Assembly (NCBI GenBank): GCA_965217975.1
Contig: OZ244578.1
Location: 597,690-661,689, forward strand
Length of the DNA stretch: 64,000 bases
Source of the DNA: Nitrospirales bacterium
Lineage (GTDB): Bacteria; Nitrospirota; Nitrospiria; Nitrospirales; UBA8639
Reading direction: 5' to 3'
A program made the position numbers and the translations under genes. Below, in pieces: positions 8,399 through 25,154 of this stretch. The notes under the pieces were generated by a model that was given only the letters and a program-made list of their open reading frames with translations, was not told the DNA's origin and did no database searches. Positions within the stretch are counted from its first letter, which is position 1. Each line of letters opens with the position of its first letter.

Positions 8399-11300
8399 AT
8401 GAACCATCAAGCCATCACACCCCCCATACCCATGCCAAAACATCCACTCGCCACACGCCTCAAAATCCTCCTCCCCGCGCTCATGCTCGTTGCGCTGGCA
8501 AGTGCGGAAACCAGCGCGCAAGCCCCGCCACCCACGCTCGACCTGGAACCCACCGGCGTACCGGTGGATATCAGCAACACCGCCACGCTGACCATCACCG
8601 ATAACGATAGCGAGCTAGTCGTCAACTCGGTCGGCTACTATGCCGATGAGGCGGCGACCCTCCCCATCATCGAGGGGGCCATCAACACGCATATCTATAT
8701 GGTCATTGAGTTCAACTCGGATGTACAACATGTGAATACCGTGGACGATGTCACTCTCCAGACCAGTGAGAGAGTGACAGGGCAACCGGGGATCCTCGTG
8801 CGGCATCAAAGCGTCATCCCCGGAGTCATCCCCCCCATAGTGAGGATCCCCATCCGCGCAGACAACACCGCATTCCCGAATTTGGTCAGTGCGTGCCGCG
8901 CCAGATTCGCCGGTGACACCAGCGAATACCTCTGCCAGGTCTTCTTGCGGGAGGGGAGTTTCGGCACGGGGGCGTTACGGCTTGTGGTGGAAGCGGGCGG
9001 GACCAGCAACACCGCCGGCAACACGCTGGCCGCGGACTACGTGGATGAAGACGAAGACGGAGGCGGTGGCGTGACGGTGGTGGATCCGCAGGATCCGCCG
9101 ACCGTGCTGTCCATCACGCATTACTCGGACGCCGCCCGCAGCACAGCCGCAGAAATCAGCGACACGGATACGGTGAGAGGCGGCACGATCTACTCGGTGA
9201 TTCAATTCGCCGGGTTGCCTATCGCCAGTTCGGAATTCTTCTACCAGATTGGCCCCGACGCCGCCGATCGGGTGCGGTTTGGCGATGATGCCCCCACCGG
9301 CGACACACCACCGCAAAACGGAACCTGCGCGCTCCTTGAGCGCGGCACCGGCCTGGCGGCGGCGAATCAGTCGTTCTGGTGCCGCTACAACCTCCGGTTA
9401 AGCGACGCCGGCGCCGGCGACTATCAAGTCATCGTCGGCACCGGCACCACGGATACCGCCGGGGAACCTCTGGCCGACCCATTCCCCAGCGCCAGCGTGA
9501 CGCTCGACGTGGAGACCGGCACCGCGACCTTGAGCATCGCGGCTGTTGACGTGGACGAAGGCGCCGGCACGGCGACCGTCAGCGTGACGGTGGATGACGC
9601 GGTCACCGGCGGGTTCAGCGTGGACGCCATGACCGACGACGGCACCGCCACCGCCCCCGGCGACTACACCGCCGTCTCCGGCCAAACCCTGTCCTTCACC
9701 GGCACCGCCGCCCCCGAGACCCTGTCCTTCACCGTGACCATCATTGACGACCCCCTCTACGAAGGTGGCACAAGCGGCGTCCCCGAAACCGTGGCGGTCT
9801 CGTTAGGCAACCTGCAAAACAACGCGACCGACGTGGATATCAGCAGCGCCGCCGCCACCATCAGCATCAGAGACAACGACTACGAAGTGGCGCTGACCAT
9901 GGAAGACGTCAGCGTGAGCGAAGGTGTCGGCAGCACGGCGACCGTCATCGTGAGTGTGGATACCAGGGTGCCGGGCGCGTTCAGCGTAGAGGCGTCCACC
10001 GCCGACGGCACCGCCACCGCCTCCGGCGACTACACCATCGTCTCCGACCAGGTCCTGTCCTTCACCGGCGAGGCCGGCGAGATGCAGACCTTCAGCGTGC
10101 CCATCGCCAACGACAGCATGCAGGAATTCCCGGAAACCCTGACGGTGTCGTTGAGCAACCTGCAAGTCACCACGGACACCGCCACCACGGCGGGCACGCT
10201 GCGGCCCGTCAGCGCGACCATCACCATCATGGATGACGACATAGACACCGGAGACATCAACCTGCACCTGCTGTTCCCGGTCACGTTCAATGGCAAAACC
10301 TATCGTTATCTGGATAACAATGGGGACGGCTTAGCTGATGCCGGGGATCTTGTCTCGCATATCGCCCTGGATAACTTACTCAACGGCGGCAGCGATACCA
10401 TGGATACCCAGACCACCCGGCTCGGCGGGCACAATGGGCAGGATGACGCACGCGCGGTGATTGTCGGTGATATGATCGTGATTTTACCCACTCTGGCAGA
10501 ATTGAAGGCGTTGCGCAGCAGCCAACCCAACACCTCACCTCTCAATTGGCGGCGTCCGACCAATCCTCTAGAGGGGTACTGGACATCCACCCGCTCAACG
10601 AACGGACATTCCTATTATAGATTTTCTGATGAGGTGGTTGCTGATAGGACCGATATCGGTCACAATTACGTGGCTTTTCAGGTACGGACTCTCCCGACGT
10701 TTAGCGCCGGCATCGCCGACCAGGCCTACACGGTCGGCCAGACGGTCGCGCTGACGCTGCCCAAAGCCGGCGGCGGTGTCGGCACGCTAACCTACACGCT
10801 GACGCGCGACGATGGCTCGCCGGTGTTGCCGCTCGGGCTGACCTTTGACGACATGGCGCGCACCATCAGCGGCGCGTCAACTGTGGTGTTCGGCGGGATC
10901 GACGGCGCCAGCATGCGCTACACCGCCACAGACGCCATCGGCGCCGTCCGGGACATCGTCTTTGTGTTGCGGGTGGCCGCCGCTCCGGCCCTGGTCGCCA
11001 TTGCCGAACAGACCTACACCGCCACCACCGTCGTCAACCTGACGCTGCCGGTCTCCACCACCGGCGCCACCCCGTTGACCTACACACTGACGCCGTCCGC
11101 GTCCATCCCGGCCGGGCTGACCTTTGACGCCGCCATGCGCACCCTCACAGGCACACCGACCACGGCCACCGCCGCCGGCACCCTGACCTACGCCGTCACA
11201 GACGCGAACGGCGTGGCCGCCAGCCAGACCTTTATGGTGACGGTCAACGCGATGTTGAGCATCGCCAATGTAGAAGTGGGCGAAGGAGACGGCACCGCCA

Positions 11301-14300
11301 TCGTCACCGTGAGTGTGGATATTATGGTGCCCGGCGGGTTCAGCGTGGACATATCAACCATGGACGACACCGCCATCGCCGACGAAGACTACACCGCCGT
11401 CATCCGCCAAACGCTGGCCTTCACCGGCGAGACCGCCGAGACTCACACCGTCAGCATCGCCATCACCAATGACAAGGCGGTGGAAGGGCCGGAAACGCTG
11501 ACGCTGTTGTTGACCGACCTGGATGGCACGACCGCGCCGGTGGTGATCGGCAATCCCGCCATGGTCACCATTACCGACGACGACACCGCAGTGTTGACCA
11601 TCCTGAGTACCTCCTCCGGCGAAAGCACCAGCAGCCTGGCCCTGGATATCTTCGTCTCCGTGATTTTGGGCGATGCGGTTCCCGGCGGCTTCACGGTGTT
11701 GTTTGAGACCGCTGACGACACCGCCACCGCTGGCGAAGATTACACCGCCGTCTCCCGGATCCTGACCTTTGAAGGCACCGCTGACGAGCTACACCGAGTG
11801 AGCATACCCGTCCTGCCTGACGATGTGCCGGAACGCGCCGAGAGCTTCACGGTGTCATTGCGCGACCTTGACAACACGCAAGCGGATGTGGATATCAGCG
11901 CCACCGCCACGCCCACCATTCGCGTGAGCGACGGCGGCATCGTGGGATTTGGAGACGCCGTCATTGCCGACCAGGTCTATGTCGCCAACACGATCATCAC
12001 GCCCTTGACCCTGCCCGAACCCATCGCCGCCGATTTCACTGGCACGCCGTTCTACACCCTGACACCGGCCTCAACCATCCCGCCCGGGCTAAGCTTTGAC
12101 GCGGCCACGCACACGCTAAGCGACATGCCGACCGCGACCACGACCACACCCGTCACCCTGATCTACACCGCCAGCAACTCCGGCACGTCCGCGAGCCTGA
12201 CCTTCAGCATCACGGTGGTCGCCATCGGCGTGGGGTCGGTGACGCACTACTCGGACGCCGCCGCCGCCACGCCCATCACCGATCTGGTGTCAAGCGGCGA
12301 GATCTATTCGGTGGTGGTGTTCGGCGCCAATGTGAGCAATGAGAACGCGACGGATACGACCGCCCGGCCGGCCATCGCCTACACCCTCGGCAACGATACC
12401 CCAGTGCAATTTGGCATTGTCGCGCATGACGCCGTGCTGGCAAACGGCAACTGCCGGGCTGCATTGGCCACCGACACCAGCCGCTACACCTGCCACTACA
12501 GCGTCGCAGACAGCGGCCCGAACGTGGCGGCCAATGACCCGGGCGCCTATACCCTGTCGGTGCTTGATGTCACCACAGACGAGGTGAGCAGCATGGCCCT
12601 TGATGCCTACGATGCGGATGCCGGCGTCACCATTGGCGTGCGCCCGGAGCTGCGGTCGGTGACGTACTATGCGGACAGCGAGGCGACCATGGAACTCACC
12701 GAGAATGCGGTGATTGGCAGCGCGGTCTATGCGGTGCTTGAGTTTAGCGAGAATATGGACAACATCAACGGCGTGGCCGGGTCGCTGGATATGGACGGGC
12801 TGCCGACTCTGGGTGTGTGGACAGCCAACCCCATCGGGTTCAACGGCGAGTCTCTGGTGTCCCACGTCATCCTGGCGCACAACGCCAGGCTTCGTCACGA
12901 TACGTGCCAGGCCGAATCCGCCGAGGTCACCAGCCGATATCTCTGCCGGACCAATTTGGCTCTGGCTCAAGACTATGTCCGGTTTGTGGTGAAACAGGAT
13001 GCGCGCGACCTGGCCGGAAACACGCTGGCGATGGAAGTTCAGACGGACAACTTCCCCCTGATAAACCCTCTGCCGCCGGAGGTGCGTTCAATCATGCATT
13101 ATGCGGATTCCGCAAGGACGAAGCCCATTCGCGACGGGGACGTGGTGTCGGGCGGGGATATCTACTCGGTGATTCAATTCAGCGGCTTGACGGTGCCCGG
13201 AAGCAGCCTGGAAGTCTTCTACAAACTCGGGTCGGCGATGCGGATGCCGTTTAGCATCAACCTCACCACACAGGAGGACAGAACCTGCAACCGCCCCGGA
13301 GATGGTGGCTCCAACCCGTTTTTAGACCCGCAGTGGCAATGCCGCTATTCGGTTGGCGCGGCGGACGATGGCCGGTATCAAGTCATTGTCGGCGCGGGTA
13401 CCCAGGACACGCTGGGGCAACCCCTGGGTGCCGACTCCACCGTGGATAGCGGCGTGATCATCAGCGCCTTGAGGTTTGCCGCCGATGCAGACATTGCCGA
13501 CCAGACCTACACCGCCGGCACGGCCATCACCCCCTTGCCCCTGCCGCAAGCCACCGGCGGCGTCGCCCCGCTGACCTATCGCCTGACACCGACCGCATCC
13601 ATCCCGGCCGGGCTAAGCTTTGACGCCGCCGCGGGCACCCTTGAAGGCAGACCGGCCACGTCAACCGCCGCCGTCGCCCTGACCTACGTCGTCACAGACG
13701 CGAACGGCGTGACCACCAGCCAGACCTTTCTGGTGACGGTCAGCGCGGTGTTGAGCATCGCCGATGTCGTGGTGGACGAAGGAGTCGGCATAGCCATCGT
13801 CACCGTGCGTTTGGATCATGCGGTGCCCGGCGGGTTCATGGTGGATGCCTTGCTCCTGGATGTCAGCGCCACCGCCGTCGCCGACTACACCGCCGACGTC
13901 AGCCGGACGCTGACCTTTGCCGGCACCGCCGGCGAGCCTCAAACCTTCAGCGTGACCATTGTGGACGACGCTCTTGACGAAGACGACGAGACCGTGACGC
14001 TGTCGCTGGACAACCTGGAAGGCAACAGCGTACCGGTGGATATCAGCGACACCGCCACGCTGACCATCACCGATAACGATAGCGGGCTGACCGTCACCTC
14101 GGTCGGCTACTTTGCCGATGAGGCGGCCGCCATCACCGGGGCGGCGACCACCGTCATCACCGAAGCGGCCATCGGCACACATGTTTATATGGTCATTCAG
14201 TTCAGCGAGAATGTGCAAAATGTGAATACCGTGGACGGTCTCAATATCCCTTCCAGTGAAAGAAGGACAGGGCAACCGGCGATCTTCGTGCGGCATCTGG

Positions 14301-17300
14301 GAGTCGTCCCCTTCTCCAGCATCCTGAATTCGAGGCTCCCCATCCACGCACACAACACCGCGTTCCAGAATGGAGTCAATGCGTGCCGCGTCATACCCTC
14401 CAGTGGCACCAGCGCATACCTCTGCCAGGTCTTCTTGCCCCCCGAGATTGTCGCCCCGGGGACGCCGTTACAGGTTGTGTTGGCAGCGGGCGCGGCCAGC
14501 ACCAGCGCCGGCAACACACTGGCCGTGGAGCACGTGGACACCGGCATTGGGGTGGTGGACACGCCCGCGGCGCCGGTGCCTTCCATCACGCATTACTCGG
14601 ACGCCGACCGCAGCACAGCAATCAGCGGCACGGTGACAGGCGGCACGATCTACTCGGTGATTGAATTCGCCGGGTTGATTATCGCCAGTCAGGAAATCTT
14701 CTACCAAATTGGCGACGCCGCCGCCGAGCGGGTGCAGTTTGGCGTTCATACCCCCGGCGACACGCCGGAAAACGGAACCTGCGCGCTGATTGCTGGTGAC
14801 TACAGCATGGTGCCGGCGAATCAGTCGTTCTTGTGCCGCTACAACACCAGATCCGGCGACACCGGCACCGGCGACACCAGCACCACCTATCACGTCATCG
14901 TCGGCACCGGCACCACTGATACCGCCGGGCAAACGGCCGCCGAATTCACCAGCAGCGTGACGCTCAACGTGACGACCGGCACCGCGACCTTGAGCATCAT
15001 GGATGTCGAAGTGGACGAAGACGCCGGCACGGCGACCGTCAGCGTGACGGTGGATGACGCCGTCATGAGCGGGTTCAGCGTGGACGCCATGACCGTAGAT
15101 GACGCTGGCACCGCCACCGACGGCGAAGACTACACCGCCGTCTCCGGCCAAACCCTGTCCTTCGCCGGCACCTTCGACGGCGAGACCCTGTCCTTCACCG
15201 TGCCCATCATTGACGACGCCCTCTACGAAGGCGGCGAAAGCGGCGACGTCAAGGAGACCGTGGTGGTCTCATTAGTCAACCCGCAAAACGCGACCAACGT
15301 GGATAGCAGCAACACCGCCACCATCCGCATCACCGACAACGAGTACCAAGTGGCGCTGACCATGGAAGACTTCAGCGTGAACGAAAACACCGGCACGGCG
15401 ACCGTCAGCGTGAGTCTGGAGACGGCGGTGGACAACCCGTTCAGCGTGGAGGCTTCCACCACCGACGGCACTGCCACCGCCCCCGGTGACTACACCGCCA
15501 TCCCCAGCCAGATCCTGTCCTTCACCGGGACCACCGCCAGCGAGATACAGACCTTCAGCGTGACCATTATCAACGACTCCATGCGGGAATTCCCGGAAAC
15601 CCTGACGGTGTCGTTGAGCAACCTGGACGTCCCCACGGACACCGCCACCACGGTGGGCACGTTGCGGCCCGTCAGCGCGACCATCACCATCATGGATAAC
15701 GACATCAACACCAGAGGCATCAACCTGAACCTGATTTTCCCGGTCACGGCTGAGGGCAAAACCTATTTTTATCTGGATCAAAATGGGAATGGCATCGCTG
15801 ATATCGGGGATGTTGTCACGCATATCGCCCTGGATAACTTACTCAACAACGGGATCGATACCGATGTTACCCAGGACCGCATGCACAATGGGCAGGATGA
15901 CGCACGCTCGGTGATTGTCGGTGATAGAGTCGTGATTTTACCCACTGTGGCAGAATTGACGGCGTTGCGCAGTAGCCAATCCAACACCGCACCTCTCGCT
16001 TGGCCGAATCCGTCTTCTGGGGGGGAGTACTGGACAGCCAACCTCGCTGGAACAGTATCCCATGTCCATTCCGACTATAGCTTTTCTAATGGAATGGATA
16101 CTGGGCTGGTTGATAGCATCCTGAATTACGTAGCGTTTCAGGTACGAACTCTCCCGACGTTTAGCGCCGGCATCGCCGACCAGACCTACACGGTCGGCCA
16201 GCCGGTTGCGCTGACGTTGCCCGACGCCGCCGGCGGTGTCGGCACGTTAAGCTACACGCTGACGCGCGACGATGGGGCGCCGGTGCTGCCAGCCGGGCTG
16301 TCCTTTGACCGGGTGGCGCGCACCATCAACGGCACGCCGAGCGAGCCGTTCGGCGATACCGCCGGCGCCCGCATGCGCTACACCGCCACAGACGCCACCG
16401 GCGCCGTCCGGGACATCGTCTTCAGGTTGCGGGTAGCCGCCGCTCCGGCCATTGGCGCCATTGCCGACCAGAACTACACCGCCGACATTGACGTCAACCT
16501 GACGCTGCCGGTCACCGGCGGCATCGCCCCGCTGACCTACACCCTGACGCCGACCGCGTCCATCCCGGCCGGGCTAAGCTTTGACGGCGCGCGCACCCTG
16601 GCCGGCACACCGACCACGGCAACCGCCGCCGTCGCCCTGACCTACGTCGTCACAGACGCGAACGGCGTGGCCGCCAGCCAGACCTTTATGGTGACGGTCA
16701 GCGCGGTGTTGAGCATCACCGATGTCGAGGTGGGCGAAGGAGACGGCCCGGCCACCGTCACCGTGCGGTTGGAGCATGATGTGCCCGGCGGGTTCATGGT
16801 GGAGGCCTTTCTCCTGGGTGTCAGCGCCACCGCCGGCGCCGACTACATCGCCGACGTCAGCCGGACGCTGACCTTTGACGGCGCCGCCGGCGATCAAACC
16901 TTCAGCGTGACCATTGTGGATGACGCGCTTGACGAAGACGACAGCGAGACCGTGACGCTGTCGCTGGACAACCTGGAAGGCACCGGCGTACCGGTGGATA
17001 TCAGCGACACCGCCACGCTGACCATCACCGATAACGATAGCGGGCTGACCGTCACCTCGGTCGGCTACTTTGCCGATGCCTCGGAGGCCCTCACTATCAG
17101 CCAGGCGGCCATCGGGTCGTCCATTTATATCGTCGTTGAGTTCAGCGAGAATGTGGAACAGGTGAATACCGTGTTCAATGAAGGAGTGATAGGGCGACCG
17201 ACGATCCGCGTGCGGAGTTACCGCCTCGGCTTCGGCGCCGGCATCGTTGATGAGAGGATCCCCATCCGCGCAGACAACGCCGCGTTCCCGAATGAAGCCA

Positions 17301-20300
17301 ATGCGTGCCGCACTCAAGTCGCCGGTGACACCAGCGCATACCTCTGCCAGGTCTTCTTGCACCCCGTGCTTACTGGCACGGATGCACCGTTACAGGTTGT
17401 GTTGACAGCGGGCGCGGCCAGCACCAGCGCCGGCAACACACTGGCCGTGGAGCACGTGGACACCGGCATTGCCGTGGTGGACACGCCCGCGGCGCCGGCC
17501 GTGATGTCCATCACGCATTACTCGGACGCCGACATCGAAACAGCCACGGAAATCAGCGGCACGGTGACAGGCGGCACGATCTACTCGGTGATTCAATTCA
17601 CCGGGTTGCCTCTCGTCAGTCCGGAAATTTTCTACCAAATCGGTACGGCCGCACGGGTGCAGTTTGGCGGTCATCCCTCCGGCGACACGCCGGAAAACGG
17701 AACCTGCGCGCTCCTTGATAGCGGCACCGGCCTGGCGTTGGCGAATCAGTCGTTCTTGTGCCGCTACAACACCAGAACCGCCGACACCGGCACCACCTAT
17801 CAGGTCATCGTCGGCACCGGCACCACGGATACCGCCAGGCAACCGCTGGACCCCGAATTCGCCAGCAGCGTGATGCTCGACGTGACGACCGGCACCGCGA
17901 CCTTGAGCATCGCGGATGTTGAGGTGAACGAAGGCGCCGGCACGGCGACCGTCAGCGTGACGGTGGATGACGCGGTCACCGGCGGGTTCAGCGTGGACGC
18001 CATGACCGCAGACAGCACTGGCACCGCCACCGCCGGCGAAGATTACACCGCCGTCACCCAGACCCTGTCCTTCGCCGGCACCTTCGCCGGCGAGACCCTG
18101 TCCTTCACCGTGACCATCATTGACGACGCCCTCTACGAAGGCGGCGAAAGCGGCGACCTCAAGGAGACCGTGGCGGTCTCGTTAGGCACCCCGGTAGGCA
18201 ACACGGAAGGCACGGCCGTGTCGGTGGATAGCAGCGCCACCGCCACCATCAGCATCACCGACAACGAATACTTAGTGGTGCTGACCATGGAAGACTTCAG
18301 CGTGAACGAAAACGCCGGCATGGCGACCGTCAGCGTGAGTCTGGAGACTGCGGTGCCGGACGCGTTCAGCGTGGTCGCGTCCACCGAAGACGGCACCGGC
18401 ATCGGCATCGCCACCGCCGACGAAGACTACACCGCCATCTCCGGCCAGATCCTGTCCTTCGCCGGCACCTTCGCCGGCGAGAGACAGACCTTCAGCGTGA
18501 CCATCCCCCCCGGCGACACCACGCCGGAATTCCCGGAAACCCTGACGGTGTCGTTGAGCAACCTGGACGTCCCCACGGACACCGCCACCAGGGTGGGCAT
18601 GTTGCGGCCCGTCAGCGCGACCATCACCATCATGGATGACGACATAGACACCGGAGACATCAACCTGAACCTGTTGTTCCCGGTCACGGTTGAGGGCAAA
18701 ACCTATTTTTATCTGGATCAAAATGGGAATGGCAGGGCTGATGTCGAGGATATTGTCACGCATATCGCCCTGAATCGCTTACTCAACGGCGGCAGCGCGA
18801 CCGAGGCGACCCAGGACGGCGTGCACAATGGGCAGGATGACGCACGCTCGGTGATTGTCGGTGATACGACCTTGATTTTACCCACTGTGGAAGAATTGAC
18901 GATGTTGCGTAGCCTCCAATCCAACACCGCACCCGCACATTGGCAGAATCCGTCTCTCGGGGGGGAATACTGGACAGCCAACGTTAATATGGATCTAACA
19001 GACAGTTTTGGTGCTCCGCAATTCTTTTTCGACTATGGATTTTCTGATGGAATGGCTACTGAAGTGAACCGTCTAAACTTCAATTACGTGGCGTTTCAGG
19101 TACGCACTCTCCCGACGTTTAGCGCCGGCATCGCCACCCCCCAGACCTACACGGTCGGCCAGACGGTCACGCTGCCACTGCCCGACGCCGCCGGCGGTGT
19201 CGGCACGCTAAGCTACACGCTGACGCGCGACGATGGCTCGCCGAGGCTGCCGGCCGGGCTGTCCTTTGACCCGGTGGCGCGCACCATCAGCGGCATGCCG
19301 GGCGAGCCGTTCGGCGATACCGCCGGCGCCCGCCTGCGCTACACCGCCACAGACACCACCGGCGCCGTCCGGGACATCCTCTTTGTGTTGCGGGTAGCCG
19401 CCGCCCCGGCCCTGGTCGCCATTGACGACCAGAACTACACCGCCAACACCGCCGTCAACCTGACGCTACCGGCCGCCACCGGCGGCATCGCCCCGCTGAC
19501 CTACACCCTGACGCCGACCGCGTCCCTCCCGACCGATCTGGTCTTTGACGCCGCCGAGCTCACCCTCAAAGGCATACCACCGGCCACGGCAACCGACGCC
19601 GTCACCCTGACCTACACCGTCACAGACGCCAACGGCTTCACGGCCGAGCAGACCTTCACGCTGGAGGTGTTCAGCGCGCCGACCATCGCCGATACCGTCC
19701 CCGACCAGATTTATACCGTCGGCCAGCCGGTCGCGCTGATGCTCCCCGAAGCCACCGCCGGCGCGCCCCTGCTGACCTACACCCTGACGCGCATTGATGG
19801 CGGCACGCCGCTGTTGCCGGACGGGCTGACCTTTGACGCCACGGCGCGGACCATCAGTGACGCACCGAAAGCGACGTTCAGCGCCAGCGCCGGCGTCGGC
19901 GTCGGCCTGCTCTACACCGTCACAGACACCAACGGCGTCGTCGCGTCCACCGACTTCACTCTGCTCGTCAACGCTGCGGTGACCTTTAACACCAGCGTCA
20001 TTCCCGCGCCCGATTCGGCCTATACCTACCCCCTCAACACGGCCATCACCACCTTGACCCTGCCGCCAGCCACCGGCGGCACCGGCGTACTGACCTACAC
20101 CCTGACGCCGACCGATTCCATCCCGGGCGAGCTGACCTTTGACGCCGGCGCGCTCACCCTTGCCGGTATGCCGACCATGGTCACCGCCGCCGTCGCCCTG
20201 ACCTACGCCGCCACCGATGCCAACGACGTGGCCGCCACCCTGACCTTTACGGTCGCGGTGGTGGACCGCCCGGCTGTGACCATCACCGACAGCATCGCCA

Positions 20301-23300
20301 CCGATACCGCCAACAGCGCCGACGGCGATGTCATCTTCACCTTCATGTTCACCGAGGAGGTCAGCGGGTTTGATGTGAGCGGCATCAGCCTGACCGGCGG
20401 CACCGCCTCCGGCCCATTGAACGGCACCGCCCCCGGCGCAACCTATACGCTGGCCGTCACCCCGGCCCCCGATACCAATGACGGCATCATCAGCGTGGCC
20501 GTGATGGAGAATGAGGCCATCGGCGAAACGACCAACACCGGCAATATCGCGACCACCACCCCCGCCACGCAGAAGTACGACACGCTCGCGCCGGCCATGC
20601 CGAGCATTGACGCCATCACCGGAGACAATGTCATCAACGACACCGAAAGAGTCGCCGGCGTCCCCGTCACCGGCGACGTTGAGCGCGGCGCGAACGTGGC
20701 GCTCTGCTTCAACGACGGCACCGGGACCATCGCCGACTGCACCGGCGGCGTGGCAGCCACCGACGCCCCCGAGAACACCGCCTGGAGTTATGATCTGACC
20801 ACCGACAACATCAACACCCTGGGCGAGGGCGCCCACGTCGCGCGCGCCGTCGCCACGGATGCGGCCGGCAACCCCGGTCCGGCGGCAAGCCAACCCTTCA
20901 CCGTGGACATCACGGCGCCGGACGCCCCGACCTTTAACCTCCCCGCCGCCGGCGACATCATCAACATCGCCGAGCGGGATACCGGCGTCACCATCGGCGG
21001 CGACGTTCGCGACCCCGGCGTGAGCGTGTCCGTCTGCCTCGGCGCCGCCAGTCTCACCGATGCCCCCTGCACCGGCGGCACGACCGTCACCATCACAGAC
21101 GGCGTCACCGACACGACCTGGCGTTATACGCTCTCGGTCGCCGAAGTGAACGCGATGGGCCAGGGCGACGAGATCCTGCTCGCCACCACCATAGACCCGG
21201 CCGGCAACCGCAGTGCGCTCGGCAGCACAACCATCAACGTGGACACCACCGTGCCGGTCTTCACCTCCGGCCTCACCGGTGCGGTGGCGGTCGGTGCGAC
21301 CAGCGCCACGGTCACCGCCTACGACGCCACCGCCAGAGACAACAACGGCGGCGATGACGACGGCATCACCTACACCCTGGGCGGCGCGCATGCCGGTCTG
21401 TTCAGCATCGTCGCCGACACCGGCATCGTCACCTACAACGACGACCAGAATGTCGAGGCCATCCACACCATCGTCATCACCGCCACCGACACGGCCGGCA
21501 ACACCGCCGAACGGATCGTGACCATCTCGGCACTGAACGCGCCCGCGGTGGACATTACCAGCAGCACCCCCCTCATGGACTATGCCAACGGCGTCATCAC
21601 CTTCACCATCAGCTTCACCGAGGCGGTCACCGGGTTTGAGCCGACCGGCGACGTCAGCGTAGCCGGCGGCATGGGGGAAGCGATTACGCCGACCCCGGAT
21701 GCGGCAACCACCTATGAGACAACAGACACCTTTACCCTGCCCGTGACCCCGGGCACCGACAATGACGGCGTTCTCACCGTCACGGTGAGGGCCAATGCGG
21801 TCATGGGCACGGTCACCCTGACCGGCAACCCGGAAACCTCGGTGACCCGGCAGTATGACACCGTGGCACCCATCATCACCGGCGGCGCCACCGCCACGGC
21901 CATGTTTATCGTCAACGACCCGGTCGCCACCGAAGTCTATAACGCCGACGCGACAGACGACGGCGGCACGGATGATGACGGCATCACCTACAGCTTGAGC
22001 GGCGCCAATGCCGGTCTGTTCACCATCCACCCCGCCACCGGCTCGGTCACCTACCAGACCAGCCCGACCGACGCGGCCGTCCACACCATCGTCATCACCG
22101 CCACCGACAAAGGCGGCAACACCGACACCATCATGGTCACCGTCACCGCTGTCTTAAGCGACAACGCCGCCCTGTCGGCGCTGACCGTCACCACCACTGG
22201 CGACGCCGTCGTCCCGCTCTCTCCGGCCTTCGCCACCGCCACCAGCGCCTATACCGCCACCGTCCGCCAGGAAGTCACCAGCGTCACCATCACCCTCCCC
22301 ACCGCCCACGCCGGCGCCACCGCCGGCATCGCCGGCACCGCCGCCGACGGCACTACCGCCCTGAACGTCACCGGCAGCACCGTCACCGGCCTGACCGAAG
22401 GCATCAGCCCCAACACCAACACCATCCTCGTCACGGTCACCGCCGCCGACATGGTCACCATGAACATCTACACCATCACCCTGACCCGCGCCCCCCTCCT
22501 GACATTCGGCACCGGCGTCACCATTGACGACCAGACCTACAACATCGGCGAAACCATCGCCGCCCTGACCCTGCCCGTCGCCACCGGCGGCCTCGGTACG
22601 TTGAGCTACACACTGACCCCGCCCGCCAACATCCCGGCGGACCTGGTGTTTGCCAGTGCCTCTCGCATCCTTAGTGGCACACCGAGCGTGCTTGATACCC
22701 AACCCCTGACCTACACCGTCACCGACGGCGCCACCCCCCCGGTCTCAACCACGTTGACCTTCAACGTGATGATCGTGCGAGGGATAACGGTCACACCCGG
22801 CAGCACCGCCGACATACCGCTGGACCTGGATGGCGACATGGCCGCCAACGACCCCGAAGACGGAATCCTGACTCTGCCCCCCGGCCACACCGTCACCGAA
22901 GCCATCATCGGCGTCCCGCCGGAGACCGCCGTCGCCAACCCGCCCGCCGGCGTGATCTTCAGCCTGACGACGGACATCATGTTGGACATGGCCCTGACGT
23001 TGCCCGCGACCGTCTGCATGCCCACCACCGGCGTCCCGCCAGGCCGCGAACCGGTGCTTTACCACTACTTCGCCGGCACCTGGAACGAAATCGGCCGCGA
23101 CACCGCCACCCGCGCCGGCTACGTCTGCGGCGAGACCCTCACCTTCTCGCCCTTCGCGGTGGGCTATGCCCAACTCCGCGCCCGGCTGACGACCATCAGC
23201 CAAACCCTCCTGCCGGAAGTGGCACGGGCCATCACGGACAGCACCGTCAACGCCATCACGCGGCGTATAGCGCAATCCAGCGCCGGCGCTGTCCGCGAGA

Positions 23301-24664
23301 TCATTTATATTCCCCATGCCGCCACGGGCCATGAGCAAGGCTCGTTCACCCTCGGCGGCCAAACCACCCTGGCCGGCATCCTGACCACCGGCGGGCAAGC
23401 GCTGGCCGACGGCACCCTGGACCTGTACGACATCGTGAGCCGCTCCGACTTTGTGCTGCCGATCAACCCCGCCAATGGGCTGGCGCAGCACCTGACCCTC
23501 TGGGGCGGCGCCGACTACCGCGGCCTCAACGGCACCGGCGGCGCCACGGACTGGGACGGAGGGCTATTCAGCATGAGACTGGGCGCGGACGCCCGCGTGC
23601 GGCACAACCTGCTGGCCGGGGCCGCCCTCACCTGGACCGATGGCGACTTTGACTATGGCGCACTGACGGACGACCCCACAGATCGCGGCGGCGACTATGC
23701 CCTTGAGCTCACCAGCCTCACCCCCTACGCAGGGTGGGCCGTCCTGCCGGCGGGCCGCCTGGACCTGTGGGCCACCGCGGGCTACGGCTGGGGCGAAGTA
23801 ACGCTCAACGATAGCGTCGTAGAACCGGTGCAAACCAGCGACGCCACGACAGTCATGGTAGGCGGAGGCATCAGCGGGCAGTTACTGAAAACCAACGCCA
23901 GCCAGTTGCGGATACACGGCGAAGTCATGCAGACATCCATGGATCTGGAAGGCCACGACAGAATTGAAGCGCTGACCGTCTCGGCCCGGCGGGTACGGGT
24001 GAACCTGGAAGGGAAGCATGACCAGGCGTTGCCCTACGGCGGGCGACTGGGCACCACGTTGGAGATGGGCATTCGGCATGACGGAGGAGACGGGCGCACC
24101 GGCACCGGCGTGGAAATGGGCGGCGGGCTAAGTTATCAGCACCCGGTTCAGGGCTTCACCCTGTCCAGCCAGAGCCGGGTGTTGCTGGGGCATACCGGCG
24201 GCTACGAAGACTGGGGCATCGGCGGCGCGTTTTCGGTGGCACCGGGCAAAGGCGGGCGCGGGTTGGCCCTCCGGCTGGCGCCCACCTACGGCCAAACCGC
24301 AACGCGCACCGCGCAACTCTGGGATCAAAATGCGGCGGATCTGACCGGCACGGACGCAGCGGCCATGGGTCGGCGAATGGATGCGGAAATAGGCTACGGG
24401 CTGGCCATTGCGGACGGGCAAAGTCTCCTGACGCCATACGGAAAGCTGACATGGGGCGCCGGCACACGGGATTACCGGCTGGGGAGCCGCCTGGCGCTTC
24501 CCCTGGGGCTGACCATGAGCCTGGAAGGTGTACGCGGGGAGACGGTCGGCGCCCCGCCGGCGCATCGGCTCCAATGGCAGACCGCCTGGCGGTGGCTCAC
24601 CGCGTCCATGGAATCCTCCAGACAGGAGCGCCGTCTCCAACTGAAGGCCGAGTGGCAGTGGTAG
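8399..24664 (+). CDS. Giant (about 5,400 aa) repetitive surface adhesin-like protein: Calx-beta, He_PIG/dystroglycan-type Ig, SbsA/Big-like, cadherin-like and lectin-like modules, with a C-terminal autotransporter-type beta-barrel
   Basis: One uninterrupted 16.3-kb ORF (track 8324..24664). Candidate starts are ATG 8399 or ATG 8432; the latter gives the signal peptide MPKHPLATRLKILLPALMLVALASAETSAQA. Ten Calx-beta-like units (DYTAVSGQTLSFTG...F.V.I.DD..E). Many units with PLTYTLTP..SIPAGLSFD...L.GTPT...TDANG. Cadherin-like units (ITYTLGG..AGLFSI...TGIVTY...H.IVITATD.AGN). The C terminus ends in LQLKAEWQW. Confidence 0.9.
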   Translation: MNHQAITPPIPMPKHPLATRLKILLPALMLVALASAETSAQAPPPTLDLEPTGVPVDISNTATLTITDNDSELVVNSVGYYADEAATLPIIEGAINTHIYMVIEFNSDVQHVNTVDDVTLQTSERVTGQPGILVRHQSVIPGVIPPIVRIPIRADNTAFPNLVSACRARFAGDTSEYLCQVFLREGSFGTGALRLVVEAGGTSNTAGNTLAADYVDEDEDGGGGVTVVDPQDPPTVLSITHYSDAARSTAAEISDTDTVRGGTIYSVIQFAGLPIASSEFFYQIGPDAADRVRFGDDAPTGDTPPQNGTCALLERGTGLAAANQSFWCRYNLRLSDAGAGDYQVIVGTGTTDTAGEPLADPFPSASVTLDVETGTATLSIAAVDVDEGAGTATVSVTVDDAVTGGFSVDAMTDDGTATAPGDYTAVSGQTLSFTGTAAPETLSFTVTIIDDPLYEGGTSGVPETVAVSLGNLQNNATDVDISSAAATISIRDNDYEVALTMEDVSVSEGVGSTATVIVSVDTRVPGAFSVEASTADGTATASGDYTIVSDQVLSFTGEAGEMQTFSVPIANDSMQEFPETLTVSLSNLQVTTDTATTAGTLRPVSATITIMDDDIDTGDINLHLLFPVTFNGKTYRYLDNNGDGLADAGDLVSHIALDNLLNGGSDTMDTQTTRLGGHNGQDDARAVIVGDMIVILPTLAELKALRSSQPNTSPLNWRRPTNPLEGYWTSTRSTNGHSYYRFSDEVVADRTDIGHNYVAFQVRTLPTFSAGIADQAYTVGQTVALTLPKAGGGVGTLTYTLTRDDGSPVLPLGLTFDDMARTISGASTVVFGGIDGASMRYTATDAIGAVRDIVFVLRVAAAPALVAIAEQTYTATTVVNLTLPVSTTGATPLTYTLTPSASIPAGLTFDAAMRTLTGTPTTATAAGTLTYAVTDANGVAASQTFMVTVNAMLSIANVEVGEGDGTAIVTVSVDIMVPGGFSVDISTMDDTAIADEDYTAVIRQTLAFTGETAETHTVSIAITNDKAVEGPETLTLLLTDLDGTTAPVVIGNPAMVTITDDDTAVLTILSTSSGESTSSLALDIFVSVILGDAVPGGFTVLFETADDTATAGEDYTAVSRILTFEGTADELHRVSIPVLPDDVPERAESFTVSLRDLDNTQADVDISATATPTIRVSDGGIVGFGDAVIADQVYVANTIITPLTLPEPIAADFTGTPFYTLTPASTIPPGLSFDAATHTLSDMPTATTTTPVTLIYTASNSGTSASLTFSITVVAIGVGSVTHYSDAAAATPITDLVSSGEIYSVVVFGANVSNENATDTTARPAIAYTLGNDTPVQFGIVAHDAVLANGNCRAALATDTSRYTCHYSVADSGPNVAANDPGAYTLSVLDVTTDEVSSMALDAYDADAGVTIGVRPELRSVTYYADSEATMELTENAVIGSAVYAVLEFSENMDNINGVAGSLDMDGLPTLGVWTANPIGFNGESLVSHVILAHNARLRHDTCQAESAEVTSRYLCRTNLALAQDYVRFVVKQDARDLAGNTLAMEVQTDNFPLINPLPPEVRSIMHYADSARTKPIRDGDVVSGGDIYSVIQFSGLTVPGSSLEVFYKLGSAMRMPFSINLTTQEDRTCNRPGDGGSNPFLDPQWQCRYSVGAADDGRYQVIVGAGTQDTLGQPLGADSTVDSGVIISALRFAADADIADQTYTAGTAITPLPLPQATGGVAPLTYRLTPTASIPAGLSFDAAAGTLEGRPATSTAAVALTYVVTDANGVTTSQTFLVTVSAVLSIADVVVDEGVGIAIVTVRLDHAVPGGFMVDALLLDVSATAVADYTADVSRTLTFAGTAGEPQTFSVTIVDDALDEDDETVTLSLDNLEGNSVPVDISDTATLTITDNDSGLTVTSVGYFADEAAAITGAATTVITEAAIGTHVYMVIQFSENVQNVNTVDGLNIPSSERRTGQPAIFVRHLGVVPFSSILNSRLPIHAHNTAFQNGVNACRVIPSSGTSAYLCQVFLPPEIVAPGTPLQVVLAAGAASTSAGNTLAVEHVDTGIGVVDTPAAPVPSITHYSDADRSTAISGTVTGGTIYSVIEFAGLIIASQEIFYQIGDAAAERVQFGVHTPGDTPENGTCALIAGDYSMVPANQSFLCRYNTRSGDTGTGDTSTTYHVIVGTGTTDTAGQTAAEFTSSVTLNVTTGTATLSIMDVEVDEDAGTATVSVTVDDAVMSGFSVDAMTVDDAGTATDGEDYTAVSGQTLSFAGTFDGETLSFTVPIIDDALYEGGESGDVKETVVVSLVNPQNATNVDSSNTATIRITDNEYQVALTMEDFSVNENTGTATVSVSLETAVDNPFSVEASTTDGTATAPGDYTAIPSQILSFTGTTASEIQTFSVTIINDSMREFPETLTVSLSNLDVPTDTATTVGTLRPVSATITIMDNDINTRGINLNLIFPVTAEGKTYFYLDQNGNGIADIGDVVTHIALDNLLNNGIDTDVTQDRMHNGQDDARSVIVGDRVVILPTVAELTALRSSQSNTAPLAWPNPSSGGEYWTANLAGTVSHVHSDYSFSNGMDTGLVDSILNYVAFQVRTLPTFSAGIADQTYTVGQPVALTLPDAAGGVGTLSYTLTRDDGAPVLPAGLSFDRVARTINGTPSEPFGDTAGARMRYTATDATGAVRDIVFRLRVAAAPAIGAIADQNYTADIDVNLTLPVTGGIAPLTYTLTPTASIPAGLSFDGARTLAGTPTTATAAVALTYVVTDANGVAASQTFMVTVSAVLSITDVEVGEGDGPATVTVRLEHDVPGGFMVEAFLLGVSATAGADYIADVSRTLTFDGAAGDQTFSVTIVDDALDEDDSETVTLSLDNLEGTGVPVDISDTATLTITDNDSGLTVTSVGYFADASEALTISQAAIGSSIYIVVEFSENVEQVNTVFNEGVIGRPTIRVRSYRLGFGAGIVDERIPIRADNAAFPNEANACRTQVAGDTSAYLCQVFLHPVLTGTDAPLQVVLTAGAASTSAGNTLAVEHVDTGIAVVDTPAAPAVMSITHYSDADIETATEISGTVTGGTIYSVIQFTGLPLVSPEIFYQIGTAARVQFGGHPSGDTPENGTCALLDSGTGLALANQSFLCRYNTRTADTGTTYQVIVGTGTTDTARQPLDPEFASSVMLDVTTGTATLSIADVEVNEGAGTATVSVTVDDAVTGGFSVDAMTADSTGTATAGEDYTAVTQTLSFAGTFAGETLSFTVTIIDDALYEGGESGDLKETVAVSLGTPVGNTEGTAVSVDSSATATISITDNEYLVVLTMEDFSVNENAGMATVSVSLETAVPDAFSVVASTEDGTGIGIATADEDYTAISGQILSFAGTFAGERQTFSVTIPPGDTTPEFPETLTVSLSNLDVPTDTATRVGMLRPVSATITIMDDDIDTGDINLNLLFPVTVEGKTYFYLDQNGNGRADVEDIVTHIALNRLLNGGSATEATQDGVHNGQDDARSVIVGDTTLILPTVEELTMLRSLQSNTAPAHWQNPSLGGEYWTANVNMDLTDSFGAPQFFFDYGFSDGMATEVNRLNFNYVAFQVRTLPTFSAGIATPQTYTVGQTVTLPLPDAAGGVGTLSYTLTRDDGSPRLPAGLSFDPVARTISGMPGEPFGDTAGARLRYTATDTTGAVRDILFVLRVAAAPALVAIDDQNYTANTAVNLTLPAATGGIAPLTYTLTPTASLPTDLVFDAAELTLKGIPPATATDAVTLTYTVTDANGFTAEQTFTLEVFSAPTIADTVPDQIYTVGQPVALMLPEATAGAPLLTYTLTRIDGGTPLLPDGLTFDATARTISDAPKATFSASAGVGVGLLYTVTDTNGVVASTDFTLLVNAAVTFNTSVIPAPDSAYTYPLNTAITTLTLPPATGGTGVLTYTLTPTDSIPGELTFDAGALTLAGMPTMVTAAVALTYAATDANDVAATLTFTVAVVDRPAVTITDSIATDTANSADGDVIFTFMFTEEVSGFDVSGISLTGGTASGPLNGTAPGATYTLAVTPAPDTNDGIISVAVMENEAIGETTNTGNIATTTPATQKYDTLAPAMPSIDAITGDNVINDTERVAGVPVTGDVERGANVALCFNDGTGTIADCTGGVAATDAPENTAWSYDLTTDNINTLGEGAHVARAVATDAAGNPGPAASQPFTVDITAPDAPTFNLPAAGDIINIAERDTGVTIGGDVRDPGVSVSVCLGAASLTDAPCTGGTTVTITDGVTDTTWRYTLSVAEVNAMGQGDEILLATTIDPAGNRSALGSTTINVDTTVPVFTSGLTGAVAVGATSATVTAYDATARDNNGGDDDGITYTLGGAHAGLFSIVADTGIVTYNDDQNVEAIHTIVITATDTAGNTAERIVTISALNAPAVDITSSTPLMDYANGVITFTISFTEAVTGFEPTGDVSVAGGMGEAITPTPDAATTYETTDTFTLPVTPGTDNDGVLTVTVRANAVMGTVTLTGNPETSVTRQYDTVAPIITGGATATAMFIVNDPVATEVYNADATDDGGTDDDGITYSLSGANAGLFTIHPATGSVTYQTSPTDAAVHTIVITATDKGGNTDTIMVTVTAVLSDNAALSALTVTTTGDAVVPLSPAFATATSAYTATVRQEVTSVTITLPTAHAGATAGIAGTAADGTTALNVTGSTVTGLTEGISPNTNTILVTVTAADMVTMNIYTITLTRAPLLTFGTGVTIDDQTYNIGETIAALTLPVATGGLGTLSYTLTPPANIPADLVFASASRILSGTPSVLDTQPLTYTVTDGATPPVSTTLTFNVMIVRGITVTPGSTADIPLDLDGDMAANDPEDGILTLPPGHTVTEAIIGVPPETAVANPPAGVIFSLTTDIMLDMALTLPATVCMPTTGVPPGREPVLYHYFAGTWNEIGRDTATRAGYVCGETLTFSPFAVGYAQLRARLTTISQTLLPEVARAITDSTVNAITRRIAQSSAGAVREIIYIPHAATGHEQGSFTLGGQTTLAGILTTGGQALADGTLDLYDIVSRSDFVLPINPANGLAQHLTLWGGADYRGLNGTGGATDWDGGLFSMRLGADARVRHNLLAGAALTWTDGDFDYGALTDDPTDRGGDYALELTSLTPYAGWAVLPAGRLDLWATAGYGWGEVTLNDSVVEPVQTSDATTVMVGGGISGQLLKTNASQLRIHGEVMQTSMDLEGHDRIEALTVSARRVRVNLEGKHDQALPYGGRLGTTLEMGIRHDGGDGRTGTGVEMGGGLSYQHPVQGFTLSSQSRVLLGHTGGYEDWGIGGAFSVAPGKGGRGLALRLAPTYGQTATRTAQLWDQNAADLTGTDAAAMGRRMDAEIGYGLAIADGQSLLTPYGKLTWGAGTRDYRLGSRLALPLGLTMSLEGVRGETVGAPPAHRLQWQTAWRWLTASMESSRQERRLQLKAEWQW
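8558..14039 (+). repeat. Intragenic mega-repeat unit 1 (5.48 kb; the unit 2/3 module order plus about 2.5 kb of extra modules)
   Basis: Starts with GTACCGGTGGATATCAGCAACACCGCCACGCTGACCATCACCGATAACGATAGCG. This anchor recurs almost identically at 14040 and 16988. A second anchor, CCGGAAACCCTGACGGTGTCGTTGAGCAACCTG, is at 10130. Confidence 0.85.
14040..16987 (+). repeat. Intragenic mega-repeat unit 2 (2.95 kb)
   Basis: Same anchor at 14040 and second anchor at 15593. Module order: two Cys-pair Ig-like modules, two Calx-beta, one lectin-like, two He_PIG, one Calx-beta. Confidence 0.85.
16988..19660 (+). repeat. Intragenic mega-repeat unit 3 (about 2.7 kb; diverges from unit 2 near 19650)
   Basis: Same anchor at 16988 and second anchor at 18533. 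Long stretches are roughly 90% identical to units 1 and 2 at the DNA level, judged by eye. Confidence 0.8.
23491..24661 (+). other. Autotransporter-like beta-barrel translocator domain of the giant protein
   Basis: LTLWGGADYRGLNGTGG..WDGGLFSMRLGADARV..., followed by alternating amphipathic strands rich in G, Y and W. Terminal aromatic residue (..AEWQW). Preceded by a helical linker (LLPEVARAITDSTVNAITRRIAQ). Confidence 0.7.
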
Positions 24665-24741
24665 GTAGTCGGCTGGCATCATCAAGCGCGAACCCCGGCA
24701 ACCTCTGACAACAAGCCATCGGCGGGAACACCGCCGCCGTT

Positions 24742-24763
24742 ATTCCCGCGTCCCGGCGGGAAT
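24742..24763 (+). terminator. Possible stem-loop downstream of the giant gene (no T-tract)
   Basis: ATTCCCGC-gtcccg-GCGGGAAT forms an 8-bp stem. A further GCGGGAA copy lies at 24722-24728. Confidence 0.25.
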
Positions 24764-25154
24764 CCAGTTCCCCCGGCGACGCCCGGATTCTCGTTTTCAC
24801 GGGGGGACCGTCAAGCGTAGAAATCCCTGTGCGGGCATGACGAAAGTGGCGGACAGGCGGTTGTTGGTATTGACGCACTCGGCTGGGCTGTGCTGCCGGG
24901 TGGCAGCCGGATCTCATGAGTTGGCAGGACTGTTTTGTTTATTGAGGTATGCAACCCTTCATTAAGCCTTCCATCGGCACCCCGTCTTCATTGACCATTC
25001 CCTGTGTTCCTCTGCTTTGCATTGCAGTCAACGTGACTCCGCGGCGTATGCCCTGGAGAGGGTGCAGTCTTTCAATGTCGCACGAAAGAGACGGAGGCTC
25101 TGATGTATCAGGAGCAAGGCCGAACGGGTATCCTGTCCTGCGCGGTGGCGCTTT

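Follow-up and report, generated by a model that had tools for sequence, protein, structure and literature searches.

The 64,000-nucleotide window analysed here (contig OZ244578.1 of assembly GCA_965217975.1, positions 597,690 to 661,689, from a Nitrospirales bacterium) carries on its plus strand a giant gene, at 8384..24664, which probably encodes a self-anchored autotransporter-like adhesin with an enlarged outer-membrane (OM) barrel. By its profile match, the first half of this barrel can be called homologous to autotransporter barrels. Positions given below are those of the window, and residues of the giant protein are numbered from the ATG at 8399.

The C-terminal module that contains the barrel comprises amino acids (aa) 4922–5421 (window 23162–24661). 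It is 500 aa long, compared with about 478 aa in typical relatives; classical autotransporter beta-domains have about 280–300 aa. Its parts are as follows.

23162..23293, plus strand: long alpha-helix (module residues 2–44) with the motif LPEVARAITD.T..AI..R, which is found in homologues; AlphaFold2 confidence (pLDDT, predicted local distance difference test) 81–90; the helix is also present in the relative P0190.
23294..23485, plus strand: linker of short helices and strands, presumed to plug the lumen (module residues 45–108; AlphaFold2, with gappy alignment columns at 45–58).
23486..24595, plus strand: 18 long beta-strands predicted by AlphaFold2 (module residues 109–478), of which strands 1 to about 10 correspond to PF03797; typical relatives end here in W or F.
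24596..24661, plus strand: extra hairpin LTASMESSRQE-RRLQLKAEWQW, seen in the family alignment; AlphaFold2 places its second strand at module residues 488–499.

The Pfam family PF03797 (Autotransporter) matches the module with 35.6–38.3 bits, for a cut-off of 26. The match runs from position 3 to 207 of the 255 in the profile and covers module residues 115–313, approximately the first 10 strands, with 165–185 residues remaining beyond it. The same family is matched by 17 of 31 relatives. The giant protein ends in KAEWQW, and an F or W is likewise the C-terminal residue in 244 of 265 relatives. A previous sequence-only reading of this DNA had noticed the autotransporter beta-domain character of the C-terminus and its final W, and both observations hold. 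No match was obtained when the family profile was compared by sequence with solved structures.

The AlphaFold2 model of the module (31 sequences; pLDDT 78, predicted template modelling score (pTM) 0.72) consists of a helix at residues 2–44, a stretch reaching to about residue 108 that comprises a poorly ordered loop and then short helices and short strands, and 18 long strands within residues 109–480, joined by turns of 2–9 residues and one 26-residue loop; a further strand lies at 488–499. The model of P0190 (556 aa, 45% identical; 96 sequences; pLDDT 82, pTM 0.78, most barrel blocks above 90) has a helix at residues 90–127, a similar plug-like segment and exactly 18 strands. In the two models, a helix of 38–43 residues with pLDDT 81–96 directly precedes the barrel. 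With strand 1 directed outward, strand 18 would run inward and end in the periplasm, as barrels require. The sequence-only reading had assumed 12 strands, which does not agree with a 500-aa module, a PF03797 match on about 10 strands and two models with 18; the structure prediction and strand count that it proposed thus give a barrel, of 18 long strands. Its alternative suggestion, an OM anchor of another type, comes closer to the result: the anchor is an enlarged relative of the autotransporter barrel that defines a large family of its own.

When the model was compared with the PDB by Foldseek, no solved structure reached a template modelling (TM) score of 0.5 normalised to the query. The beta-domains of BrkA, EspP and Hbp align over about 230–260 columns, half of the model (TM 0.55–0.62 on the target, 0.29–0.34 on the query). 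Plugged barrels, namely TonB-dependent transporters (22 strands) and LptD (26 strands), align over about 480–560 columns with TM 0.33–0.43. Comparison of the first half of the barrel with the second half by hhalign revealed only weak similarity at the level of hairpins (E 0.014, probability 3%); this is not significant, and an origin of the barrel by block duplication is not shown.

In the family alignment the last 22 residues of the giant protein face gaps: typical members, including P0182, a paralogue in the same genome, stop at the position of HRLQWQTAWRW, and the giant protein runs on past it with LTASMESSRQERRLQLKAEWQW. This extra hairpin is a compact copy of the preceding LTMSLEGVRGE-(turn)-HRLQWQTAWRW, to which it is identical at 12 of 22 positions, and would give the giant protein a 20-stranded barrel. 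The 22-aa copy is common only to the giant protein and P0003, its closest relative by barrel. We surveyed such copies by the distance between the (L/V)TPY motif and the C-terminus in 309 family members, 271 of which have 50–55 residues. A 31-aa copy of strands 17–18, about 56% identical to its parent, is present in a Nitrospirales group (P0004, P0005, P0040, P0041, P0044 and P0285–P0288), a 34-aa copy of strands 16–17 in P0015, P0016 and P0088, and a 35-aa terminal hairpin copy in P0248. There are therefore four sequence types of terminal hairpin copy (22–35 aa), each at or next to the targeting strand. On this sequence evidence, the family would have moved from 18 to 20 strands repeatedly by duplicating the end with the targeting strand, with at least three origins besides that in the giant protein. 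As terminal duplications recur, the barrel may plausibly have grown in this way from an ancestor with 12 strands. OM barrels reportedly gain strands by hairpin duplication. The terminal copies described here conform to that pattern; what differs is that the copy includes the autotransporter-like terminal targeting strand and is recent enough to be read by eye.

The barrel family is large. A phmmer search of the module against 1.84 billion representatives (clusters at 50% identity) found 6,008 clusters with E≤1e-3, of which 1,541 reach E≤1e-30. The module is C-terminal in all of the 150 matches listed, in proteins of 383–7,796 aa. Partner domains were compiled from 253 listed relatives, obtained in word-indexed searches over lengths 275–9,500 aa. 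They include He_PIG, Calx-beta, cadherin, fn3, PKD, several Big families, leucine-rich repeats (LRR), SRCR and HYR; no beta-helix passenger family occurs among the partner domains of these 253 proteins. Some relatives carry the NCBI name 'autotransporter domain-containing protein'. There is no dedicated model for the barrel family in the Pfam and NCBIfam libraries searched, and a search of the literature found no description of such a helix-plus-barrel module. The giant protein shows all of the features by which the family is defined: a C-terminal module of about 470 aa with an LPEVARA-type helix, a plug, 18 predicted strands and a terminal F or W, behind a beta-sandwich or LRR passenger.

Of 144 loci confirmed in a scan of species-representative genomes, 80 were kept. 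Twenty-four of these are in a single 2.99-Mb Nitrospirales genome and 15 in Thermohalobaculum; other taxa include Nitrospinales, Candidatus Poriferihabitaceae, Thermodesulfobacteriota, Binatia, Thiotrichales, Ectothiorhodospiraceae and Rhodobacterales. One family locus is titled Aphanocapsa feldmannii, which we take to be a sponge-symbiont cyanobacterium, and Candidatus Spongiihabitans is the source of one named relative. Several isolate labels of the family genomes presumably go back to sponge-metagenome studies. The family thus has members in many phyla and apparently mostly in sponge-associated genomes, a link drawn from genome labels rather than from sample metadata. Upstream of the barrel, 51 of 78 genomic loci have an open frame of 1,000 aa or more. 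At least 12 members are encoded on the 2,414,105-bp contig of the window itself (P0002, P0181–P0185, P0187, P0189, P0280, P0281, P0034 and P0038).

A recurrent open reading frame (ORF) of 480–500 aa with an HLPLYRQ motif lies about 0.5–3 kb downstream of the barrel in six loci of Thermohalobaculum sp. (L019, L028, L029, L032, L037 and L048). The motif is typical of IS66-family transposases and hints at an association with mobile elements.

Comparison of the giant protein with two relatives revealed a mosaic structure. P0020, from another assembly and located near dnaA (L001:6001-16683), is 80–89% identical to the giant protein in most of the last approximately 1,400 residues of the passenger (38–62% over aa 4022–4421 and 4622–4721, and 82–83% in the final two comparison segments, up to FSPFAVGY at aa 4921), and its helix and barrel are only 25–39% identical. 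For P0003, the passenger is 26–56% and the helix and barrel 57–71% identical. The break falls at the start of the helix, at window position 23162 (aa 4922). Since identity breaks at the helix start and the closest relatives differ on its two sides, the helix and barrel are inherited and exchanged as one unit; by these comparisons, helix-plus-barrel is swapped as a cassette between passengers. Immediately before the break lies one further element.

22781..23161, plus strand: pre-barrel junction domain (aa 4795–4921), with Cys4873 and Cys4910 (37 residues apart), ending in FSPFAVGY.

This domain is found in 23 of 371 members; in most of these it stands directly before the helix and ends 466–477 aa from the C-terminus. 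From this distribution it appears to be the junction domain of a subfamily, not of the whole family, where it may serve as an autochaperone or junction domain.

The plus-strand frame 8324..24664 is open throughout, without a stop, in both the ORF listing and the translation; the single 16.3-kb ORF of the sequence-only reading is therefore an unbroken frame, and this length excludes a chance origin of the gene. Translation from the ATG at 8384 yields 5,426 aa, identical (100%) to P0002, the entry for the same contig in the public protein collection; the ATG at 8399, chosen in the sequence-only reading, yields 5,421 aa. The protein has a mass of 559 kDa and a computed pI of 4.05, with 626 Asp + Glu residues, only 22 Lys and 24 Cys. 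The gene and its signal are positioned as follows.

8384..24664, plus strand: giant gene, with two candidate ATGs (8384 and 8399) and the stop codon at 24662–24664.
8399..8506, plus strand: Sec-type signal peptide, aa 1 to about 36, ending RLKILLPALMLVALASA|ETS (sequence inspection).

The N-terminus reads MNHQAITPPIPMPKHPLATRLKILLPALMLVALASAETSAQAPPP. By inspection it carries a Sec-type signal, with K/R in the n-region followed by LLPALMLVALASA and an A-x-A site; the classical signal peptide reported earlier is recognizable by this n-h-c pattern with ALASA|E. Cleavage after ALASA is more likely than after AQA, which is disfavoured because a Pro comes next.

The passenger is an acidic array of 4,885 aa and about 45 modules. 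Known families were identified with Pfam, and copy numbers were obtained with profiles built on the protein's own repeats (self-profiles). Calx-beta, He_PIG, Big_12, Cadherin, Cadherin-like and Autotransporter exceed the Pfam cut-offs in the giant protein; its Big_13 and Big_9 matches are below them. The inventory of modules is as follows.

Calx-beta: 10 full copies and one N-terminal remnant at aa 45–79 (self-profiles and Pfam).
He_PIG: 11 copies (self-profiles and Pfam).
Two-Cys module of about 140–160 aa, opening with (S/T)(I/V)(T/G)(H/Y)Y(S/A)D: 9 copies.
Lectin-like module of about 155 aa: 3 copies (self-profiles).
Big_12: 2 copies (Pfam).
Big_13-like, each with a Cys pair: 2 copies (Pfam below cut-off and self-profiles).
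Cadherin: 2 copies (Pfam).
Cadherin-like beta sandwich PF12733: 1 copy, at SDNAALSALTVT (Pfam).
Pre-barrel domain of 127 aa: 1 copy.

Along the gene these are arranged in the following blocks, all on the plus strand.

8531..11248, plus strand: super-repeat 1 (aa 45–950), with the Calx remnant, 2 two-Cys, 2 Calx-beta, a lectin-like module and 2 He_PIG (self-BLAST of tiles, self-profiles, Pfam).
11306..13798, plus strand: middle block (aa 970–1800), with 2 Calx-beta, He_PIG, 3 two-Cys and He_PIG (Pfam, self-profiles).
13802..16702, plus strand: super-repeat 2 (aa 1802–2768), with 50–80% protein identity to super-repeats 1 and 3 (self-BLAST of tiles, self-profiles).
16760..19672, plus strand: super-repeat 3 (aa 2788–3758; self-BLAST of tiles, self-profiles).
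19679..20263, plus strand: He_PIG pair (aa 3761–3955; Pfam, self-profiles).
20267..22498, plus strand: distal block (aa 3957–4700), with Big_12, 2 Big_13-like, cadherin, Big_12, cadherin and the cadherin-like sandwich (Pfam, self-profiles).
22499..22777, plus strand: last He_PIG (aa 4701–4793; Pfam, self-profiles).
10232..10690, 15695–16150 and 18635–19108, plus strand: the lectin-like modules (self-profiles).
8615–9556 and eight further copies, plus strand: the two-Cys modules (aa 73–386, 1276–1694, 1896–2203 and 2882–3173), with one Cys pair each, spaced 13 or 18 residues.

The domain mapping proposed in the sequence-only reading essentially bears out its list. The ten Calx-beta units are there, plus the remnant, as are the two cadherin units, the one cadherin-like unit at the sequence given for it, and Big-type immunoglobulin-like (Ig-like) units (2 Big_12 and 2 Big_13-like). 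He_PIG was correctly named, and the estimate of more than a dozen copies was slightly high. The nine two-Cys and three lectin-like modules were missing from that list.

The three super-repeats are 50–85% identical in protein (self-BLAST of tiles). The lectin-like modules share a D.NG.G.AD loop and the pattern LPT..EL..L...YWT...YVAFQVR, a resemblance of pattern only, which recalls lectin folds of the DUF1566/Lcl type. The two-Cys, lectin-like and pre-barrel modules have no match in Pfam or NCBIfam even at E≤1, and none by sequence in the PDB when searched singly. The families found in the passenger are beta-sandwich families, next to the modules without family match; a beta-helix with autochaperone is not among them. 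Nor do the Pfam matches of the giant protein include RTX repeats, type I secretion features, a two-partner secretion (TPS) domain or POTRA domains. The 24 Cys make up 12 intramodular pairs with spacings of 11, 13, 18 or 37 residues, and the barrel module has no Cys. Only short disulphide loops are known to be tolerated in autotransporter export. The short-range pairs fit export via a narrow path, with which they are compatible without being proof of it.

The mechanism that we infer extends to surface exposure, the export route, dependence on the barrel assembly machinery (BAM), a calcium ratchet, the ligand and the host. The Sec signal would direct the 559-kDa precursor to the periplasm, and the 500-aa module would insert in the OM, presumably through recognition of the terminal aromatic strand by BAM. 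The barrel would have 18 strands in typical members and 18 plus the duplicated hairpin in the giant protein, with the conserved 40-residue helix and the plug of about 60 aa occupying its lumen. The passenger would be threaded out C-terminus first and remain attached; folding of the Calx-beta/cadherin type outside the cell, stabilised by calcium, would supply direction. The product would be a calcium-stiffened fibre roughly 0.2 micrometre long bearing three lectin-like modules, and its role is likely to be attachment to the host matrix or cell–cell adhesion in an apparently sponge-associated bacterium.

Other explanations have to be considered. The barrel might be a classical type Va barrel of 12 strands, its extra length consisting of long loops or an appended domain misdrawn by AlphaFold2 as strands. 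PF03797 is indeed the sole significant barrel family match, and the NCBI name of some relatives and the alignment of BrkA, EspP and Hbp (TM 0.55–0.62 on the target) point the same way. We nevertheless consider this unlikely: both models, of sequences 45% identical, give 18 strands with turns of 2–9 residues and a single long loop, the profile match stops at 207 of 255 with 165–185 residues left, the conserved terminal F/W strand stands at the far end of the extra strands, and some members append a further hairpin copy at that very end. Also to be weighed is a barrel that acts as an OM anchor or pore only, with the array kept in the periplasm or brought to the surface in some other way. In LptD, BamA and TonB-dependent receptors the N-terminal domains sit in the periplasm or in the lumen, the best fold matches include large plugged barrels of this kind, and folded Ig-like domains pass a narrow pore with difficulty. 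This explanation is improbable in view of a fibre of about 45 modules, too big for the periplasm, of its Calx-beta, cadherin, He_PIG, fn3, PKD and lectin-like types, which are extracellular adhesion modules, and of the autotransporter-like first half of the barrel and preceding helix. Moreover, the gene has no other secretion genes beside it, and downstream of the 78 family loci there is no partner gene that recurs across phyla. Giant Calx-beta/cadherin-type adhesins are usually substrates of type I secretion (see also PMC12153261), so that an RTX/Bap-like adhesin of the LapA, SiiE or MpIBP type with a barrel-like C-terminus could be imagined. It is very improbable, given the N-terminal Sec signal, Pfam matches without RTX or other type I features, a C-terminus predicted as a beta-barrel ending in W, and the lack of an adjacent operon for ABC, membrane-fusion (MFP) and TolC proteins; the upstream ABC system is of the ABC-2/GldG type.

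The three super-repeats also raise the question of an assembly chimera or pseudogene, whose long frame would stem from repeats that were collapsed or wrongly joined. The 3' end of the gene is present in three public runs, which come from two organisms. Their short-read contigs over 8000–25000 break inside the repeats, with many repeat-to-repeat joints, and are no evidence for or against the full repeat order; precisely at the borders of the gene, the flanks pass into long contigs. The gene also occurs in two other samples, one of them with a 27-bp insertion in frame. The super-repeats are no assembly hazard, however, because they are only 50–85% identical in protein, and the 16.3-kb frame is open. 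P0020, from another assembly, is collinear with the giant protein over about 2,700 aa at 60–89% identity, and P0003 and P0020, from independent assemblies, have the same pre-barrel/helix/barrel junction. The only indels seen in the reads within the frame are multiples of three, with lengths of 3 bp (ACC behind 14575) and 27 bp. The latter is the insertion CGCCACGGGGCAGTTGGCGCCATCCGG behind 23319 in run X2; it lies in the variable loop after the helix and is a strain-level length variation in which the frame is kept. A chimera is accordingly a far-fetched explanation. The sequence-only reading had named the lack of a predicted barrel and a chimeric or interrupted ORF as grounds for abandoning it; structure prediction does give a barrel, and there is no sign of a chimera or an interruption.

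Several points weigh against a self-anchored autotransporter-like adhesin with an enlarged barrel. NCBIfam TIGR01414 scores 13.6 bits, below its cut-off of 16. A closed sheet with the helix in its lumen is suggested by secondary structure, confidence values and fold matches. In a direct-coupling analysis of strand pairing and barrel closure with 265 modules (effective number of sequences, Neff, 172), too few for the purpose, most of the signal came from gap patterns and near-diagonal pairs, and no usable ladders emerged. The first strand of the extra hairpin has low confidence in AlphaFold2 (pLDDT about 47). Export of the passenger is assumed by analogy with autotransporters, and many OM proteins keep N-terminal extensions in the periplasm; the family itself is known here from sequences and predicted structures. 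A search for RNA runs led back to the same three public runs. A contig of run X1 at 23338 starts with CAGTGGTATCAACGCAGAGTACT, a SMART-type PCR adaptor, which fits cDNA and amplified low-input DNA alike, and hence no claim of transcription is made.

Type V systems are taught as barrels of 12 strands (Va, Vc, Ve) or 16 strands (Vb, Vd). With classical type Va proteins (BrkA, EspP, Hbp and NalP, and EstA as one that is not beta-helical; PF03797) the giant protein shares a single polypeptide with a Sec signal, passenger, helical linker and C-terminal OM barrel, a terminal aromatic residue, the PF03797 match over about 10 strands and the absence of a partner translocator gene. They have 12 strands, whereas 18 (+2) are predicted here, with a helix of about 40 residues and then a plug-like segment of about 60 aa. 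The passenger is a beta-sandwich array instead of the usual beta-helix with autochaperone, TIGR01414 stays below cut-off and no structure superposes at TM≥0.5 on the query. Beta-helices account, to our knowledge, for nearly all passengers of classical autotransporters. The combination of a calcium-binding/Ig passenger with a C-terminal barrel, regarded as atypical of type Va in the sequence-only reading, is supported here. The protein would work in the manner of an autotransporter, but we do not file it as canonical type Va, since by its models it would fail on the 12 strands and it matches the curated profiles incompletely.

Inverse autotransporters (type Ve: intimin and invasin) are similar in having an OM barrel, a string of Ig-like (Big) domains with lectin-like modules and a role in adhesion, but their 12-strand barrel is N-terminal and the passenger C-terminal; in the giant protein the order is reversed and the barrel larger. 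Giant type I adhesins (LapA, SiiE, MpIBP and BapA) are likewise acidic Calx-beta/cadherin/Big-like fibres of several thousand residues, with embedded ligand-binding modules and rigidification by calcium. They differ in an N-terminal retention module, RTX repeats, an adjacent operon and the lack of a Sec signal; the giant protein has none of these traits. Two-partner secretion (type Vb) uses a TPS domain and a separate TpsB (POTRA and 16 strands), neither of which was found in the giant protein or ten neighbouring ORFs.

'Eukaryote-like' cadherin/fn3/LRR/Ig proteins have been discussed as enriched in sponge symbionts, where they are treated as domain counts, and the only text on autotransporters concerns the inverse ones (PMC10947273). 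Their domain repertoire and the kind of source genome are the same as in the barrel family, and they have been proposed to move laterally from one symbiont to another. For these counted adhesion domains, the barrel family would provide a concrete route of export and anchoring. A family of thousands coupling an 18-strand autotransporter-related barrel to strings of Ig-like, cadherin, fn3, LRR and Calx-beta domains would also widen the type V picture and offer a testable case of OM crossing by large disulphide-containing beta-sandwich arrays. In its terminal hairpin copies, growth of a barrel could be studied in progress. The short module (about 470 aa), portable between passengers, may serve in surface display of beta-sandwich proteins. 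Taken together, the observations might define an undescribed type-V-like class, a view we put forward tentatively, at somewhat less than even chances. It would comprise an autotransporter-derived 18-strand barrel with ongoing terminal-hairpin growth (20 strands reached at least three to four times independently, once in the giant gene), exchanged as a cassette between passengers and phyla. It would act as a display device for 'eukaryote-like' arrays in sponge-associated bacteria of many phyla. Export of beta-sandwich passengers of several thousand residues with disulphide loops would then be made possible by a wider lumen or by another mode of interaction with BAM.

Upstream of the giant gene are a GT2 glycosyltransferase and the ABC-2/GldG-type system, and downstream a fatty-acid desaturase, a CBS protein and a TonB-dependent receptor. 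Genes for type I secretion, TpsB, ushers or chaperones are not adjacent (ten neighbouring ORFs scanned), and no gene downstream of the 78 family loci is conserved across phyla. No tRNA was detected in 7000–8500 (ARAGORN) and no family above threshold in 7300–8450 (Rfam). A candidate promoter was read directly from the sequence.

8310..8315, plus strand: TATAAT, a −10-like hexamer preceded by TGGG, about 70–85 nt 5' of the start codons; it is not among the matches of the consensus promoter scan.

The G+C content of the giant gene is 0.61–0.67, compared with 0.54–0.61 in the flanks, and its GC skew is negative (−0.04 to −0.20 over 8000–24000), with positive skew in both flanks. These values are consistent either with a composition rich in Thr, Ala, Gly, Val and Asp or with transfer.

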